NCBI GenBank assembly: GCA_022482545.1
Contig: JAKVOZ010000002.1
Span: 66,473-130,472 of the forward strand
Source: Bacteroidales bacterium
GTDB lineage: Bacteria > Bacteroidota > Bacteroidia > Bacteroidales > P3
Reading direction: 5' to 3'
DNA length: 64,000 nucleotides
Within the stretch, counting starts at the first letter, position 1. Every line of letters begins with the position of its first letter. The position numbers were made by a program, and so were the translations under genes. The notes under the pieces were generated by a model. It did not search any database and was not told where the DNA came from. It saw nothing but the letters and a program-made list of their open reading frames with translations. Positions 2,832-58,136 of this stretch are shown piece after piece.

Positions 2832-3461
2832 ATGTCAGGATTAATAGGAAAAAAGATTGGAATGACTAGCATTTATGATGCCTCTGGTAAACAACAACCA
2901 TGCACAGTTATTGAAGCTGGTCCTTGTGTAGTAACACAAATCAAGACGCCTGAGAAAGATGGATATAGTGCTATTCAATTAGCATTTGAGGAAATGAAGG
3001 AGAATAAATGTACAAAACCAATGAAAGGACACTTTGTAAAGGCAAGTACAACTCCTAAAAGACATCTTGCAGAATTTACTCGTTTTGAAGAAGGTGAGAA
3101 AAAAACTTTTGGAGAAGAGTTAAATTGCTCAATATTTACAGAAGGAGAATTCTTGGATATTGTAGGTATCTCAAAAGGTAAAGGTTTTCAAGGCGTTGTT
3201 CGTCGTCACGGATTTAGTGGTGTAGGAGATAAAACTCACGGACAATGTGATAGACTTCGTGCTCCTGGTTCAGCAGGTGCTTCATCATACCCTTCAAGAG
3301 TATTTAAAGGTATGAGAATGGCAGGACAAATGGGAAATCATAGAGTAAAAGTCCAAAATTTAAAGATTTTGAAAATAATCTTAGAAAAAAATTTAGTATT
3401 AGTTAAAGGATCTGTTCCAGGTCCAAAGGGTTCAATTTTAAAACTTGAGAGATGGAGTTAA
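2832..3461 (+). CDS. rplC: 50S ribosomal protein L3
   Basis: 209 aa, [10 protein letters not shown]...[14 protein letters not shown]. Operon order. Confidence 0.95.
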
Positions 3462-4087
3462 AAGTTTATAATATAAAGGGAGAAGACACTGGTAAGACCA
3501 TAGCTGTCAGTGATTCATTGTTTCAAACAGAACCCAATGATCACGTTATTTGGCTAAATGTTAAACAATATTTAGCAGACCAAAGACAAGGAACTCATAA
3601 ATCAAAAGAGCGTTCTGAGGTTTCTGGTTCAACAAGAAAACTTAAAAGACAAAAAGGTACAGGTGGAGCAAGATCAGGAGATATCAACAGCCCAATAATG
3701 GTTGGTGGTGGACGTGCATTCGGCCCAAGACCAAGAGATTATAGTTTTAAGTTAAATAAAAAAGTAAAACGTTTAGCAAGGCTTTCTGCTTTATACTATA
3801 AAGCACAAGATAATGAAATAAAAGTTGTTGAAGACTTTTCATTTGAAGCCCCAAAAACTAAACAGATGATTCAAGTTTTAGATGCTTTACAATTAAAAGA
3901 TAAAAAATCTTTGTTTATTTTGCAACCAAATAAAGAAAATTTCGTATCTTTGTCAGCTAGAAACTTGAAGAAAGTTAGAGTAATGAGTGCAAATACATTG
4001 AATACTTATGAGATATTACATGCTAATACTTTAATATTCAGTGAATCAGCATTAAAAGAGTTAGATAAAATTAATGCTAATTCTTAA
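3452..4087 (+). CDS. rplD: 50S ribosomal protein L4
   Basis: 211 aa, [27 protein letters not shown]. 10-nt overlap with rplC. Confidence 0.94.
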
Positions 4088-9283: not shown

Positions 9284-9389
9284 AAAATCAAAGACAATGA
9301 AATATTTCGGTTAAAATAAAACGAAGAAATATTTTACTAGATTAAAGAAATAATTGAATAAAACAAAGAAATAAAAAAATAAGATAGAG

Positions 9390-17668: not shown

Positions 17669-17885
17669 GTATCTGTGCAAAATGTCTAAATTTTTTTTTC
17701 TATTCTTCTCAATAAATATTTTTAAGTTAGACATATGAAAGATTAAAATTCTATAGTATATTGTTGAGCAAACATATTCAATTTGCAAACAATACAATAC
17801 ATATAATAATTATTAGTTTTTTCATTGTTAATTAGTTCTTATTTCTCATATAGTATTATCATAAGATAACTTAATTATTTCGCCA

Positions 17886-17893
17886 CAAAGGTA
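17886..17893 (-). promoter_or_regulatory. Bacteroides-type -7 box TACCTTTG (no intact gene downstream)
   Basis: Plus-strand CAAAGGTA matches the TAnnTTTG consensus on the minus strand. Identical box in the second repeat copy. Confidence 0.4.
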
Positions 17894-17978
17894 GTTATAT
17901 TTATTGAAAGATTGTTATTTTATTTTGATTTGATTATAAAAAACATACTGCGAAATCCAGTACATCTATTTTCTTTTT

Positions 17979-18076
17979 GCGATGTACTGCCAGTACATTA
18001 GCAATGTATTACCAGTACAACAGCGATGTATTATCAGTACATTAGCAATGTACTGGCAGTACAACAGCGATGTATT
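17979..18076. repeat. A-array copy 1: 4.5 tandem 22-bp units of ATGTAYTR-N-CAGTACA palindromes
   Basis: Units at 17979, 18001, 18023, 18045 and 18067. Perfect palindrome ATGTACTGcCAGTACAT at 17982-17998. Confidence 0.95.
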
Positions 18077-18214
18077 TTATTCTTTCTTTATTCTATTAAA
18101 ATGGATTGCTATTCTAATTCATTATAACAAAGTCTCAATTTCTTTATGTCTCAAAAAAAACACCTTCCTTAATAAAAATTCTATTTATTATCTTCAATAT
18201 GTCAAATTACAAAA

Positions 18215-18886: not shown

Positions 18887-19893
18887 TATACTCCTGTATG
18901 TCTATAAACTTGTTGTGTAGGACGTTCAAAAGAAGAAGCAGGTGTCGGTTCTTCAGAATATGTCGGCAATTCTACTGTAACATCCTTTCTTAAATAATCC
19001 TTTTTACTTACATTAACATATATATCATTTCCACTCATAATTTGCATTTCAGTCGGTACATAATATTGACCATTTTTAAAATATTTATCATAATTCATAC
19101 TTAAATTCTCTGAAAATTCTTTTGCTTGTAATTCTAATAATAACAAAGTTTCCCTATCCATTCCTTTAAATTTCCATGTCCCATCATCTATTTGTTTACA
19201 ATGGAATAACTCTTCTGTTAAGATATCAACATCTGTTCCTCCATAAGATATATTTAATGGATTTCCCCATGAAACAACAAGATCTTCTGATACTTCTCTT
19301 TCACTTAAATATTTTGATTTTGTGGGAATTTCAAAAGAATTTTTTGTACTATTCATTATTTGTTTCATTAGATTTTTACCCTCGTTCCCTGATTTATAAA
19401 TATGTTGCATAGTTTGTATTCTTTCATCAGTAGATTCTATTTCCATATCATTTTCTGTAACTTTATGAATTCGTTGTCCATCCTCATCTAAAATCCAAAT
19501 TTCTTTTCCATTCGGGTCAATAAGTTTTACAGGATTATCTGCACAATAAACATAAGGTGAAAGTGATGGATATTTATCACTCATCGGGTCTACACTTAAC
19601 CAACTTAGCTTCTCACTATCATAATATCTCGCTCCATAATAATTATATCCACTCTCTGCGTCTTTCTCCTTTCCATTAAACTTATATACTCCCAAATTAC
19701 TCTCTACTGGCATCAAATCAAAATATTGCAAATCTACCCAATCTTCTCCATATGGCAGATAATTCAATGTCTGTGTTACTTTACCATCACCATTCGTTAC
19801 GTATGATGCACTTCCTAAATGGTCTGAATGATAATAAAACGCTGGCTCCTTTTCTTTCTTTCCTATATAGTTATATGACTTCTTTCTTTCCAT
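18883..19893 (-). CDS. orphan Rhs/YD-repeat C-terminal fragment carrying a polymorphic toxin domain of unassigned family
   Basis: 336 aa. YD repeats (YYHSDHLGSASYVTNGDGKV, YNYYGARYYDSEKLSWLSVDP) and the core-end motif PVKLIDPNG at about aa 121-129. About 205 aa of unrelated C-terminal sequence follows. Far too short for a full Rhs protein. Confidence 0.8.
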   Translation of the reverse strand: MERKKSYNYIGKKEKEPAFYYHSDHLGSASYVTNGDGKVTQTLNYLPYGEDWVDLQYFDLMPVESNLGVYKFNGKEKDAESGYNYYGARYYDSEKLSWLSVDPMSDKYPSLSPYVYCADNPVKLIDPNGKEIWILDEDGQRIHKVTENDMEIESTDERIQTMQHIYKSGNEGKNLMKQIMNSTKNSFEIPTKSKYLSEREVSEDLVVSWGNPLNISYGGTDVDILTEELFHCKQIDDGTWKFKGMDRETLLLLELQAKEFSENLSMNYDKYFKNGQYYVPTEMQIMSGNDIYVNVSKKDYLRKDVTVELPTYSEEPTPASSFERPTQQVYRHTGVY

Positions 19894-19916
19894 AAGAAAA
19901 CTTAATTATTTCGCTA

Positions 19917-19924
19917 CAAAGGTA
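19917..19924 (-). promoter_or_regulatory. Bacteroides-type -7 box TACCTTTG upstream of the Rhs-CT gene
   Basis: Matches TAnnTTTG on the minus strand, 24 nt upstream of the ATG at 19893. Confidence 0.5.
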
Positions 19925-20018
19925 GTTATTTATTTTGATTTAAAAGAAAGATTGTTCTTTTATTTTGATTTGATTATAAAAAACAGATTACAAAATCCAG
20001 TACAACCATTTTCTTTTT

Positions 20019-20116
20019 GCGATGTACTGCCAGTACATTAGCAATGTATTATCAGTACAACAGCGATGTATTATCAGTACATTAGCAATGTACTGGTAGT
20101 ACAACAGCGATGTATT
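20019..20116. repeat. A-array copy 2
   Basis: Same 4.5 x 22-bp structure as 17979-18076, with 2 mismatches. Confidence 0.95.
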
Positions 20117-20191
20117 TTATTATCTCTTGATTCTATTTTACTGGATTAAAGAACTATTTAATCTTTGTAATTCCTTGTTTATTAGAGTGCT

Positions 20192-28948: not shown

Positions 28949-29011
28949 AAAACGAGGAAATAATTGCAAAAAACGAAGGAATAATTGCAAAAAACGAAGA
29001 AATATTTTTTT
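28949..29011. repeat. D-array: 3 tandem 21-bp units AAAACGARGRAATAATTGCAA
   Basis: Units at 28949, 28970 and 28991, in the divergent moxR / BNR-protein spacer. Confidence 0.8.
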
Positions 29012-40286: not shown

Positions 40287-40420
40287 AAATAGCATTATAT
40301 TAGTAATAGAATGGCATTATGTTGATGATAGAATGGCATTATGTTGCAACAGAATGGCATTATGTTTTGATAGAATGGCATTATGTTATTAATAAAATGG
40401 CATTATGTTATTTGTAGAAT
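40287..40420. repeat. B-array copy 1: six 21-22-bp units AGAATGGCATTATGTT + 5-6 variable nt
   Basis: Units at 40287 (degenerate), 40308, 40330, 40351, 40372 and 40394, plus a partial unit at 40416. Confidence 0.95.
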
Positions 40421-40567
40421 GAAGAAAGAATGTTTTTTATCTTTAAACGAATTTAATAATTTCAAAAAATAATTGGGTTTTATGATGATTTTAATAAAAA
40501 AACCATACAAAAATTATATTTATAACAAAAAAAGGCAAAAAACTTTTATCATTAAGAATAAACTTGC

Positions 40568-47398: not shown

Positions 47399-47529
47399 TT
47401 CTTTCTTGATTATAGTAAAATAGTTTTTGATTCTAATAAAATAGTTCTTTATTCTATTTTAACAAAATGGCATTATGTTGGTGATAGAATGGCATTATGT
47501 TGGTGGTAGAATGGCATTATGTTTTAATA
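47399..47529. repeat. composite array: 3 C-units (47399-47463) continuing in phase into 3 B-units (47464-47529)
   Basis: Six consecutive 21-22-bp units, in the spacer between convergent gene ends. Confidence 0.92.
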
Positions 47530-57242: not shown

Positions 57243-57304
57243 ATGATAACAAAAATTTATGTTGGAATAAATGGATAATGAAATAAAACGCTGTTTTATT
57301 AAAA

Positions 57305-57370
57305 TACAACAGCGATGTACTGTCAGTACAACGGCGATGTATTATCAGTACAACGGCGATGTATTTTATT
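57305..57370. repeat. A-array copy 3 (three 22-bp units TACAACRGCGATGTAYTNTCAG)
   Basis: Units at 57305, 57327 and 57349. A C-type inverted doublet follows at 57398-57447. Confidence 0.9.
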
Positions 57371-57605
57371 AGTATTTTATTTCATTTATAAAGAACTCTA
57401 TTTCTTTCTAATACATGTGCCTCACTTATGTTGAATAGAAAGAATAGATAAAAAATATTTAAAAGAAAAAAACAACATAAAACAATAATAAAAATCTTTA
57501 AATGTAAAAAAATGCCAAAAAATTTGGTTTTATGAAAAAAATAGTATTATTTTGCACACTCTAAAAATTAAATGTAAAAATTGTTTAATAATTAAAATAA
57601 AAAAA

Positions 57606-58136
57606 ATGAAGAAGAGATGGTACTTTTTGCTAATAGCTTTAATAATATCTATTAGTGGTTTCTCGCAAACAACAGAAGTTACAATTGGAACAGGCACTTC
57701 TACTAATGAACATAGCCCGTTTAATACATTTGTTAGTAATAATTTTTCTCAGCATATTTATACTGCTGCGGAGGTAGGACATTCTGGAACAATAACGAGA
57801 CTAAGTTATAATAATACTAGTTCTTATATTTGTTCAAGGACAATATCTGTTTATATGGCAGAAAATTCAAAAGCATCATTTTCTTCAGCTTCTGATATTT
57901 TACCATTAAGTAATTTTACGTTAGTGTATAATGGTAGTGTTACTTTTAATGGGTGGAGCCAAATAAATTTAACGACTTCTTTTGCTTATCAAGATACAGC
58001 AAATTTAATAATTGCTATTGTTGATAATACAAGCAATTATGAGGAACAGTCAATAGAGTTTGCTTCAAGTACAACAACAAACACATCAAATCTTTATTGG
58101 TTTAATGATAATGAAACTTTTGATGTGAATAATTAA
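57606..58136 (+). CDS. 5' fragment of a T9SS-sorted giant surface protein (signal peptide + first module)
   Basis: MKKRWYFLLIALIISISGFSQ signal peptide. The ORF-track start at 57552 is a TTG; the ATG at 57606 is the likelier start. Ends at the TAA at 58134-58136. Confidence 0.7.
   Translation: MKKRWYFLLIALIISISGFSQTTEVTIGTGTSTNEHSPFNTFVSNNFSQHIYTAAEVGHSGTITRLSYNNTSSYICSRTISVYMAENSKASFSSASDILPLSNFTLVYNGSVTFNGWSQINLTTSFAYQDTANLIIAIVDNTSNYEEQSIEFASSTTTNTSNLYWFNDNETFDVNN

Follow-up and report, generated by a model that had tools for sequence, protein, structure and literature searches.

A tandem array of overlapping palindromes with a GTAC core occurs three times in a 64,000-nucleotide stretch of contig JAKVOZ010000002.1 (assembly GCA_022482545.1), a stretch referred to here as the window. 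Such a chain of half-sites raises the question of whether the arrays (A-arrays) are operators of the genes beside them, as was put forward in a first-pass annotation of the sequence, or belong to an element that is tied to no gene in particular. The analysis described here favours the latter, and we put at roughly 0.6 the probability that the array is the variable-copy core of a dispersed, palindromic, non-coding repeat, comparable to the repetitive extragenic palindromes (REP) and bacterial interspersed mosaic elements (BIME) or to BrickBuilt, and not a gene-specific operator. This reading draws on the dispersal of the arrays, their modular structure, changes in unit number, foldback potential, strand asymmetry and a patchy distribution across genera, all of which were observed directly.

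Geometry of the arrays in the window

The geometry described in the first-pass annotation, with three copies of a 22-bp array, was borne out. Tandem Repeats Finder (TRF) recovered all three, and the motif ATGTAYTRNCAGTACA, with one mismatch at most, was found 15 times in the window against 0.08 expected, a count reached in 0 of 100 dinucleotide shuffles. The perfect palindrome ATGTACTGcCAGTACAT at 17982-17998 and the palindrome CAGTACATTagcAATGTACTG across a unit junction at 18035-18055 both read as claimed, and the half-sites alternate in orientation, with dyads about every 11 bp and a strict 22-bp phase. The period itself required an amendment. While a 22-bp period is real in copy 1 (17982-18074, 4.2 copies), TRF scored a period of 44 bp (17979-18076, 2.2 copies, 88% match) above it, and copy 2 gave a like result (20019-20116; 4.2 copies at 22 bp, 2.2 copies at 44 bp, 87-88% match). 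The strongest period is thus 44 bp, because the linkers TTAGCA and ACAGCG alternate. In copy 3 the period is 22 bp (57305-57365, 2.8 copies). The array of copy 1, taken whole, is itself a palindrome, and that of copy 2 differs from it at 2 of 98 positions.

In each unit, ATGTAYT-N3-AGTACA is preceded by a linker of 6 nt that contains AGC, and 7 nt separate the conserved arms. When the 87 units of the genome were aligned in register, the linker, [T/A][T/C]AGC[A/G], and the 3-nt centre proved variable. In the arms, ATGTA-T (positions 7-13) and AGTACA (positions 17-22), 12 of the 13 positions were invariant or deviated in no more than 3 units, the exception being position 12, with C in 52 units and T in 35. 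There are two main unit types, P (ATGTACTGNCAGTACA) and Q (ATGTATTAYCAGTACA, also given as ATGTATTATCAGTACA). The commonest array is P-Q-Q-P with the two linkers alternating, and the 22-bp phase is kept without any indel across all arrays.

Copies, flanks and unit number in the genome

The window's own genome (G000, with contigs numbered C1, C3 and so on; L-numbers denote contigs of other genomes or metagenomes) is a rumen-type uncultured Bacteroidales, represented by a metagenome-assembled genome (MAG) of 1.88 Mb in 23 contigs, with 29.6% GC and 94% completeness. A genome-wide search for the word with classification of the neighbouring genes, as the first-pass annotation had suggested, returned 105 exact unit matches, against none for a reversed control, grouped in about 28 arrays with heterogeneous neighbours. 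All of the arrays are intergenic, though open reading frames (ORFs) of at least 90 aa cover 87% of the genome. With 17-bp palindromes in 22-bp units, and about 87 units in these intergenic arrays, they are short extragenic palindromes in the sense used for REP sequences.

A flank listing and BLAST searches with the right flanks revealed leader and tail sequences that recur among the arrays. Type I, with about 14 copies that include copies 1 and 2 of the window, runs in the order of an opposite-strand promoter module (TACCTTTGTGGCGAAATAA), a leader of about 100 nt, the half-site CCAGTACA, a 17-nt T-rich linker, the array, GCRATGTATTTTATT and two 21-bp words of a further family (C-family). Type II, to which copy 3 and about five others belong (about 6 copies), has AAAACGCTGTTTTATTAAAATACA at its start and TGTATTTTATT at its end. 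Its left end is common, with small differences, to C1:97575, C4:148464, C13:10564 and C22:4757, and at C3:160221 the left end is cut by the contig end. The C-family words also stand alone at about 80-120 places in the genome. Like the A-word they are species-specific, with 83 exact matches in G000 against 0-2 per genome in 40 relatives, which does not exceed a reversed-pattern control. The A-arrays combine variably with leader (L) modules and with the C-words, in a mosaic of the BIME type.

The number of units per array ranges from 0 to 5 among copies that are otherwise 90-97% identical. In the 0-unit variant, at C3:96332, the leading half-site is joined directly to the terminal half-unit. At C9:1244 two adjacent units have a private G in common, which marks the duplication of one unit in place. 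On a related metagenome contig, L112, a core of about 190 bp (tail, one unit, leader) lies between stretches of unrelated sequence, at about 93% identity, indicating that the core is a discrete module. The array is the variable inner portion of a dispersed repeat, bounded by leader and tail and present at about 28 loci. IS5-like ends were considered and rejected, as the TACCTTTG/CAAAGGTA strings are the -7 boxes of neighbours and stand on one side only. A small hairpin with a T-run on the minus strand of the leader was likewise dropped, its left arm varying without compensation.

Arrays of similar period abound in this genome. TRF gave 201 rows at 21 bp and 85 at 22 bp, with 15-23 each at 19, 20, 23 and 24 bp, so that periods of 21-22 bp are 4-10 times commoner than neighbouring ones. 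Once merged, the loci with periods of 21-23 bp number 271 and cover 17.7 kb, about 7% of the non-coding DNA; 26 of them, the A family, cluster apart from the rest. A peak at 21 bp was also seen in samples of two congeners, where it is made up of other words. Short-read contigs of other samples (Logan) end at the repeat, and the arrays break short-read assemblies. Other 21-22-bp arrays in the window lie, for example, at 40288-40421, 47403-47523, 62284-62354, 9315-9374 and 28949-29004.

Distribution across genomes

In 40 relatives of the genome, 21 congeneric species included, the word had no match. The strict core was found at one single site among 250 sampled genomes of the order, and a strict two-unit pattern in one Prevotella MAG among 185,579 species representatives, where the arrays carry the identical ACAGCG linker. 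A Prevotella array (L111) that has this same linker is about 90% identical over 52 nt to an array of G000, in an alignment made by hand and not taken from tool output. With a pattern of arms and spacing only, 71 loci were found in about 16 rumen or gut MAGs of Prevotella, Prevotellaceae and Bacteroidaceae, with a mean of 51% GC. Most carriers had 2-18 pattern matches, one had 54 and Prevotella sp. RGIG4872 had 749, with none in the controls; 40 relatives of RGIG4872 gave none either. The Prevotella unit reads A[A/G][G/A][C/G]CCA TGTACT SNS AGTACA at a period of 22 bp, and arrays there usually have three full units between two half-sites.

A small array of a single MAG is in this way tied to a family of distant rumen Bacteroidales whose carriers differ over 100-fold in copy number. 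That arms, period and AGC-containing linker are the same at 30% and 51% GC, together with absence from close relatives on both sides, suggests horizontal spread followed by expansion within the genome, and the spread in copy number and the sharing across genera would likewise be evidence for horizontal spread and burst-like expansion of the arrays. Searches of plasmid, phage and viral collections returned no match to the word, and an origin from plasmids, phages or viral contigs was set aside on that ground. In a comparison of orthologous sites, congeners had about 74% DNA identity to the genome in secA, and synteny past secA was not kept.

Strains differ in length after radC in Prevotella (L222-L227, about 150-520 nt past the stop codon) through 1-3 tandem copies of a module of about 89 bp. 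This module, in RGIG4872 and other samples, ends in a TAnnTTTG-like box (…cttttcgtaactttg…); it is promoter-like and distinct from the GTAC array.

Placement among genes and the operator reading

The first-pass annotation had proposed an operator- or iteron-like site for the neighbouring genes. Its local observations stood up. Identical minus-strand promoter boxes lie at 17886-17893 and 19917-19924, 86 and 95 bp from the arrays of copies 1 and 2, and the array of copy 3, placed about 240 bp upstream of the adhesin gene, ends 236 bp before the ATG at 57606. The genome-wide placement, however, did not agree with this proposal. The spacers that hold 27 of the arrays are convergent in 8 cases, tandem in 17 and divergent in 2; the baseline shares, weighted by length, are 14%, 65% and 21%, respectively (p = 0.026, for the excess of convergent spacers, and 0.055). 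For three arrays, the 400 bp to each side contain no outward TAnnTTTG box, and arrays not of type I have no consistent promoter box. Genes with their starts towards arrays are functionally unrelated, and the neighbouring genes comprise an S1-domain protein, a glutamate dehydrogenase-like protein, an extracytoplasmic function (ECF) sigma factor, RimP, Rhs C-terminal (Rhs-CT) proteins and lipoproteins, several of these neighbour names being a reading of the sequences that is not Pfam-based. The sites are thus not confined to the promoters or origins of a defined gene set. With the word missing from all 21 congeners (21/21), units numbering from 0 to 5 and about 28 dispersed loci, the operator reading could not be upheld, and these findings are of the kind on which the first-pass annotation had itself proposed to give it up.

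A broader form of protein binding was weighed against the same data. Here a dimeric or filament-forming protein, with a regulator, a nucleoid-associated protein or a centromere-like binder as candidates, would sit on GTAC half-sites about one helical turn apart on one face of the DNA, and the platform would be selected for DNA organisation or promoter tuning. A 22-bp phase never broken by an indel agrees with this, as do arms (TGTACT/AGTACA) that are nearly invariant in the 87 units of G000 and invariant in 141 Prevotella units, the latter by construction of the extraction pattern, and loops and linkers that drift with genome GC content while the arms hold. The excess of 21-22-bp periods, with the same peak in two congeners that use other words, also fits, and in 12 of the 14 type I copies the array lies upstream of a -7 box at a distance of 86-99 nt. 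This constant distance, however, is accounted for by co-duplication of the promoter cassette and is not evidence of regulatory design. Eight convergent spacers, three arrays without a nearby box and a unit number that is free to vary are difficult to reconcile with a platform, as is the absence of the word from 21 congeners that have the same housekeeping genes, and a range of 2 to about 750 pattern matches among carriers is unlike a regulon. Furthermore, the left arm carries a C-to-T change in 35 of 87 units and the right arm the mirror G-to-A change, at position 18, in 2 of 87, which breaks the symmetry expected of a dimer site on duplex DNA. We thus consider a binding platform unlikely. A sequence-specific protein that recognises the GTAC arms is nevertheless likely, and such a putative protein would more probably serve to propagate the repeat than to regulate the Rhs or adhesin genes.

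An effect of restriction sites on the GTAC core was rejected, since GTAC is not avoided in the genome (observed/expected 0.95). Strong avoidance was seen for CTAG (0.08), TCGA (0.14) and GATC (0.17), which may reflect restriction-modification pressure.

Folding of the arrays and the possibility of an RNA-level role

The tandem units form a chain of overlapping palindromes that, as single-stranded DNA or RNA, is predicted to collapse into one long hairpin. For copy 1 the RNA fold was -43.7 kcal/mol (z -7.3) on the plus strand against -39.1 kcal/mol on the minus strand, copy 3 gave -27.3 kcal/mol (z -4.8), and one long hairpin was the predicted fold of most of the 27 arrays folded. A secondary idea of the first-pass annotation, that the array could form a cruciform or hairpins, thus gains support. 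Of the 27 arrays folded, one gave a tie and 26 were informative; in 23 of these the strand defined by the flanks was the more stable (Wilcoxon p = 5e-4), because the frequent C-to-T change keeps a G-U pair on that strand only.

Folding of this strength (z -5 to -7), with changes that are compatible with G-U pairing and favour one strand, would also suit an element acting in RNA, as a hairpin at transcript 3' ends that serves as a terminator, an insulator or a block to 3' exonucleases and that could, for instance, part toxin/immunity cassettes from upstream genes. The positions of the arrays lend this some weight. At least one gene 3' end is faced by 25 of 27 arrays, 11 of the 14 type I copies have upstream gene, tail, array, leader, promoter and downstream gene ordered in one direction, and several Prevotella arrays start 0-30 nt past a stop codon, one of them about 17 nt past that of radC. 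An intrinsic terminator was rejected, however, as the terminator scan called no site in any of the three arrays of the window, for want of a G+C-rich stem with a T-run after it. Copy 3, moreover, lies past a hairpin-plus-T-run of secA's own, which was read by eye and was not called by the scan. Read-through transcripts of type I copies would carry the less stable strand, and type II copies are mixed in their orientation to the upstream gene. Rfam 15 gave no match at the gathering score in the window, and a permissive scan gave only sub-threshold hairpins of the miRNA-precursor type, which is generic hairpin noise. Taken together, a role at the RNA level appears quite unlikely as the reason for these arrays.

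A proposed route of spread and the search for a mobilising partner

In the dispersed-repeat reading that we favour, 22-bp units are gained or lost in place, changing the unit number, and whole elements, made up of leader, array and tail, are copied to new intergenic sites. The family is common to this genome and distant rumen Prevotella/Bacteroidaceae, with the same arms, period and linker core, and is missing from close relatives. These three points we regard as demonstrated by the comparisons given above. Two further steps are inferred: the family probably arrived by horizontal transfer and then multiplied within the genome, and its spread may depend on a protein, acting in trans, by which the folded GTAC arms of one strand are recognised, comparable to the Y1/HUH transposase of REPINs. 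Effects on neighbouring genes, through 3' hairpins on transcripts or carried promoters, would then be side effects of an otherwise neutral repeat.

Several results weigh against this account. The G000 assembly holds no gene for a Y1-like protein of this kind. No match to PF01797 (Y1/RAYT) was obtained in it at E <= 0.01, tblastn with two Prevotella Y1 proteins gave nothing below E = 2.5, neither an IS200 partner nor TnpB was found, and its ORFs include no multi-copy transposase; as the MAG is 94% complete, the partner gene could be missing from the assembly. Three tyrosine recombinase genes (PF00589) are present (C4:155 kb, C2:175 kb and C19:22 kb), none of them next to an A-array, a result that is limited by the position of toxin/immunity cassette clusters at contig ends. 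Clear terminal inverted repeats or target-site duplications were not seen at the element ends. There was no significant leading- or lagging-strand bias in replication (10 against 16). Insertion into pre-existing hairpins in Prevotella was dismissed, as the flank complementarity equals the control, and no insertion polymorphism appeared at one Prevotella locus, where the array was identical in 8 of 8 strains or samples (ENA/NCBI contigs). Shared descent of the copies inflates the statistics of strand asymmetry and arm conservation, and invariant arms across genera would equally be expected of a conserved protein-binding site. Finally, a single promoter cassette accompanies about half of the arrays, in toxin/immunity-like loci, so that some of the dispersal may be ordinary segmental duplication.

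This last association could also be read in terms of recombination. In rAID-1 clusters of Bacteroidales, repetitive intergenic sequences are reported to occur with a XerD-like recombinase (bioRxiv 10.1101/471110), and by this precedent the folded arrays of toxin/immunity loci would be attC-like substrates on which a tyrosine recombinase shuffles orphan Rhs-CT/immunity cassettes. About half of the arrays are indeed followed by an orphan Rhs-CT gene or by a small signal-peptide ORF with no Pfam family, and as imperfect palindromes of 60-110 nt they have the size of attC sites. As mentioned above, however, 0 of the 3 tyrosine recombinase genes is near an A-array. Several orphan Rhs-CT cassettes have the promoter module and no array, while the other half of the arrays, and all Prevotella arrays inspected, sit between housekeeping genes, which renders this explanation very improbable.

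For the dispersed repeat, one candidate partner came from Prevotella, most but not all carriers of which have Y1 genes. At the locus L216 3276-3881 (G275:C56), RGIG4872 encodes a divergent 151-aa Y1/HUH transposase (3276-3731) that falls below the NCBIfam cut-offs for IS200 and RAYT, and 40 nt past its stop codon, on one side only, lies a 22-bp array of 4.9 units. The array is made of a sister word, CAGTATC-AAGCCCA-GATACTG, which has GATAC arms and the same AAGCCCA linkers and is also dispersed elsewhere. No other Y1 gene inspected had an adjacent array, and the pairing is a lead and not an association.

More speculatively, the GTAC arrays might be one lineage of an undescribed, Bacteroidales-wide class of mobile non-coding DNA, consisting of phase-locked 21-22-bp palindrome arrays that move between rumen genera and multiply by a mechanism other than that of RAYT/REPIN. 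We hold this wider proposal only tentatively. Candidates for the mechanism would be a divergent Y1 enzyme or a hairpin-specific factor by which units two helical turns long are added or copied. Were the proposal true, arms kept at 30% and 51% GC in about 17 species with 2 to about 750 pattern matches would mean that phylogenetic profiling could find the partner protein.

Relation to known repeat systems

In Proteobacteria, much has been established about REP-like repeats and their partners. The literature searched holds almost nothing on such repeats in Bacteroidota besides BrickBuilt, and no description of GTAC arrays in Prevotella. The family offers a handle for finding a mobiliser and the reason for a period locked at two helical turns.

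The GTAC arrays resemble REP, BIME and REPIN elements of Proteobacteria in being short extragenic palindromes in tens to hundreds of copies, in mosaic clusters with other words, enriched at gene 3' ends and in convergent spacers, with species-specific words, burst-like abundance and single-strand hairpins. REP palindromes, however, have a conserved GTAG or CGTC tetranucleotide at one end (PMC3733652), a tag that is missing from the GTAC unit matrix, where the conserved core is the GTAC inside the stems. The GTAC units are also strictly head-to-tail at 22 bp with no spacer, in contrast to REPs of 35-40 bp with defined linkers. Set against REPIN-RAYT systems, in which the genome has one single-copy RAYT (Y1/HUH) gene with REPs beside it, the genome studied here has neither a RAYT gene nor a lagging-strand bias, and the sole Y1 lead is the divergent gene of RGIG4872 with its sister-word array.

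BrickBuilt, a MITE of Porphyromonas gingivalis and the nearest described element in the literature searched, is a 23-nt minisatellite with leader and tail, present in 19 intergenic copies of 1-22.8 units and possessing promoter activity (Klein et al. 2015, PMC4596501). The two have in common a Bacteroidales host, a spacerless tandem unit of 22-23 nt, about 20-30 strictly intergenic copies of 1 to about 20 units, non-repetitive leaders and tails that are full, partial or absent, promoter elements in the flanks and restriction to one species group. This architecture is found in the GTAC arrays, with their 22-nt unit, without sequence homology, and is a resemblance and not membership. In contrast to BrickBuilt, the A unit is itself a palindrome, so that the whole array is a foldback, and the A family crosses genera. 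BrickBuilt, for its part, is bounded by inverted repeats of the IS5 type (GAGACCTTTGCA / TGCAAAGGTCTC) and occasionally shows target-site duplications, whereas the ends of the GTAC element carry no such repeats.

Operator, iteron and centromere arrays, such as the 43-bp repeats of sopC, the 11-bp iterons of parC and phased repressor operators, are alike in having phased palindromic half-sites at integral helical turns; the 44-bp higher-order period and the position of copies 1 and 2 upstream of a promoter also recall them. Unlike these, the GTAC arrays occupy about 28 chromosomal loci in all kinds of spacer, promoter-free convergent ones included, with a variable unit number, no linked gene found for a binding protein and a word that congeners lack. 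The attC-like repeats of rAID-1 (Ross et al., bioRxiv 10.1101/471110) share imperfect palindromes of attC length between orphan cassettes of the toxin/immunity type and promoters between cassettes; they differ in that the GTAC arrays have no adjacent recombinase gene, often lie outside cassette loci and are missing from some cassettes.

Neighbourhood of the arrays in the window

The features of the window are collected in Table 1. Copies 1 and 2 lie within a direct repeat of about 250 bp (89% mean identity in the alignment) that brackets an orphan Rhs C-terminal cassette, and they arose by duplication of this block of array and outward promoter around the cassette. The orphan gene is one of 5 paralogues in the genome with a common promoter module. 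The module, TACCTTTGTGGCGAAATAA, precedes these 5 genes and several small signal-peptide ORFs without a Pfam family, and of the orphan Rhs-CT cassettes that have it, some have an array and several do not. The arrays carry outward promoters beside polymorphic-toxin cassettes. In the copy 1 leader, the Bacteroidetes -7 box TACCTTTG (plus-strand reading CAAAGGTA) at 17886-17893 on the minus strand is followed only by a truncated remnant of the orphan Rhs-CT start.

Table 1. Coordinates of the A-arrays, their flanks and the intervening Rhs cassette in the window
Feature	Position	Strand	Details and basis
Copy 1 leader (L) module, promoter cassette reading away from the array	17860..17956	-	Alignment to copy 2
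Leading half-site CCAGTACA	17957..17964	+	Type I leader; 17-nt T-rich linker before the first unit; kept in all type I copies
A-array copy 1	17979..18076	+	Four 22-bp units P-Q-Q-P, then terminal half-unit GCGATGTATTTT; TRF, motif matches and fold
Copy 1 tail, two 21-bp C-family words (TTCTTTATTCTATTAAAATGGA, TTGCTATTCTAA...)	18077..18125	+	Right-flank BLAST, flank listing
Orphan Rhs C-terminal toxin cassette, 336 aa	18883..19893	-	Weak Pfam RHS match; paralogue cluster; shared promoter
Copy 2 leader and promoter module	19891..20018	-	-7 box 19917-19924; Rhs-CT ATG 19891-19893
A-array copy 2	20019..20116	+	P-Q-Q-P; TRF, motif matches, alignment to copy 1
Copy 2 tail, C-family words partly diverged from copy 1	20117..20160	+	Alignment of copies
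A-array copy 3, type II form	57285..57372	+	AAAACGCTGTTTTATTAAAATACA, two full units with ACGGCG linkers, terminal GCGATGTATTTTATT

Copy 3 is the stand-alone form. It follows the secA hairpin described above and precedes the gene of a type IX secretion system (T9SS) adhesin with fn3 and Por_Secre_tail domains. 

Within the 22-bp array, an ATG opens an ORF of 117 aa; despite this ORF, the arrays should be annotated neither as operators nor as genes.

Truncated frames alone follow the promoter modules at window positions 17840-17893 and at C13:21170, C2:27846, C3:95379 and C8:11488. The remnant at copy 1 reads MIILYEK*, and the others are ORFs of 37-41 aa such as MTKRENNYEYKRFNMGNSIINS...; they resemble toxin-type cassettes' 5' ends that have decayed.

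A serine recombinase (resolvase/invertase-like, MIYGYIRVSSDKQ...) is present in two copies, both at contig ends (C19:26853-27449 and C5:149964-150560), probably as part of a repeated mobile element at which the assembly breaks. Outside the window, at C1:32927-56917, a 168-bp unit is repeated in tandem about 110 times; the copies are 96% identical to their consensus and form one open frame (TGCDSTTTLRLTVNPKISQEITATICEGQTYNENGFNETGVVGSTTTYTHTDPSKV), a giant gene of more than 24 kb that encodes a 56-aa repeat.

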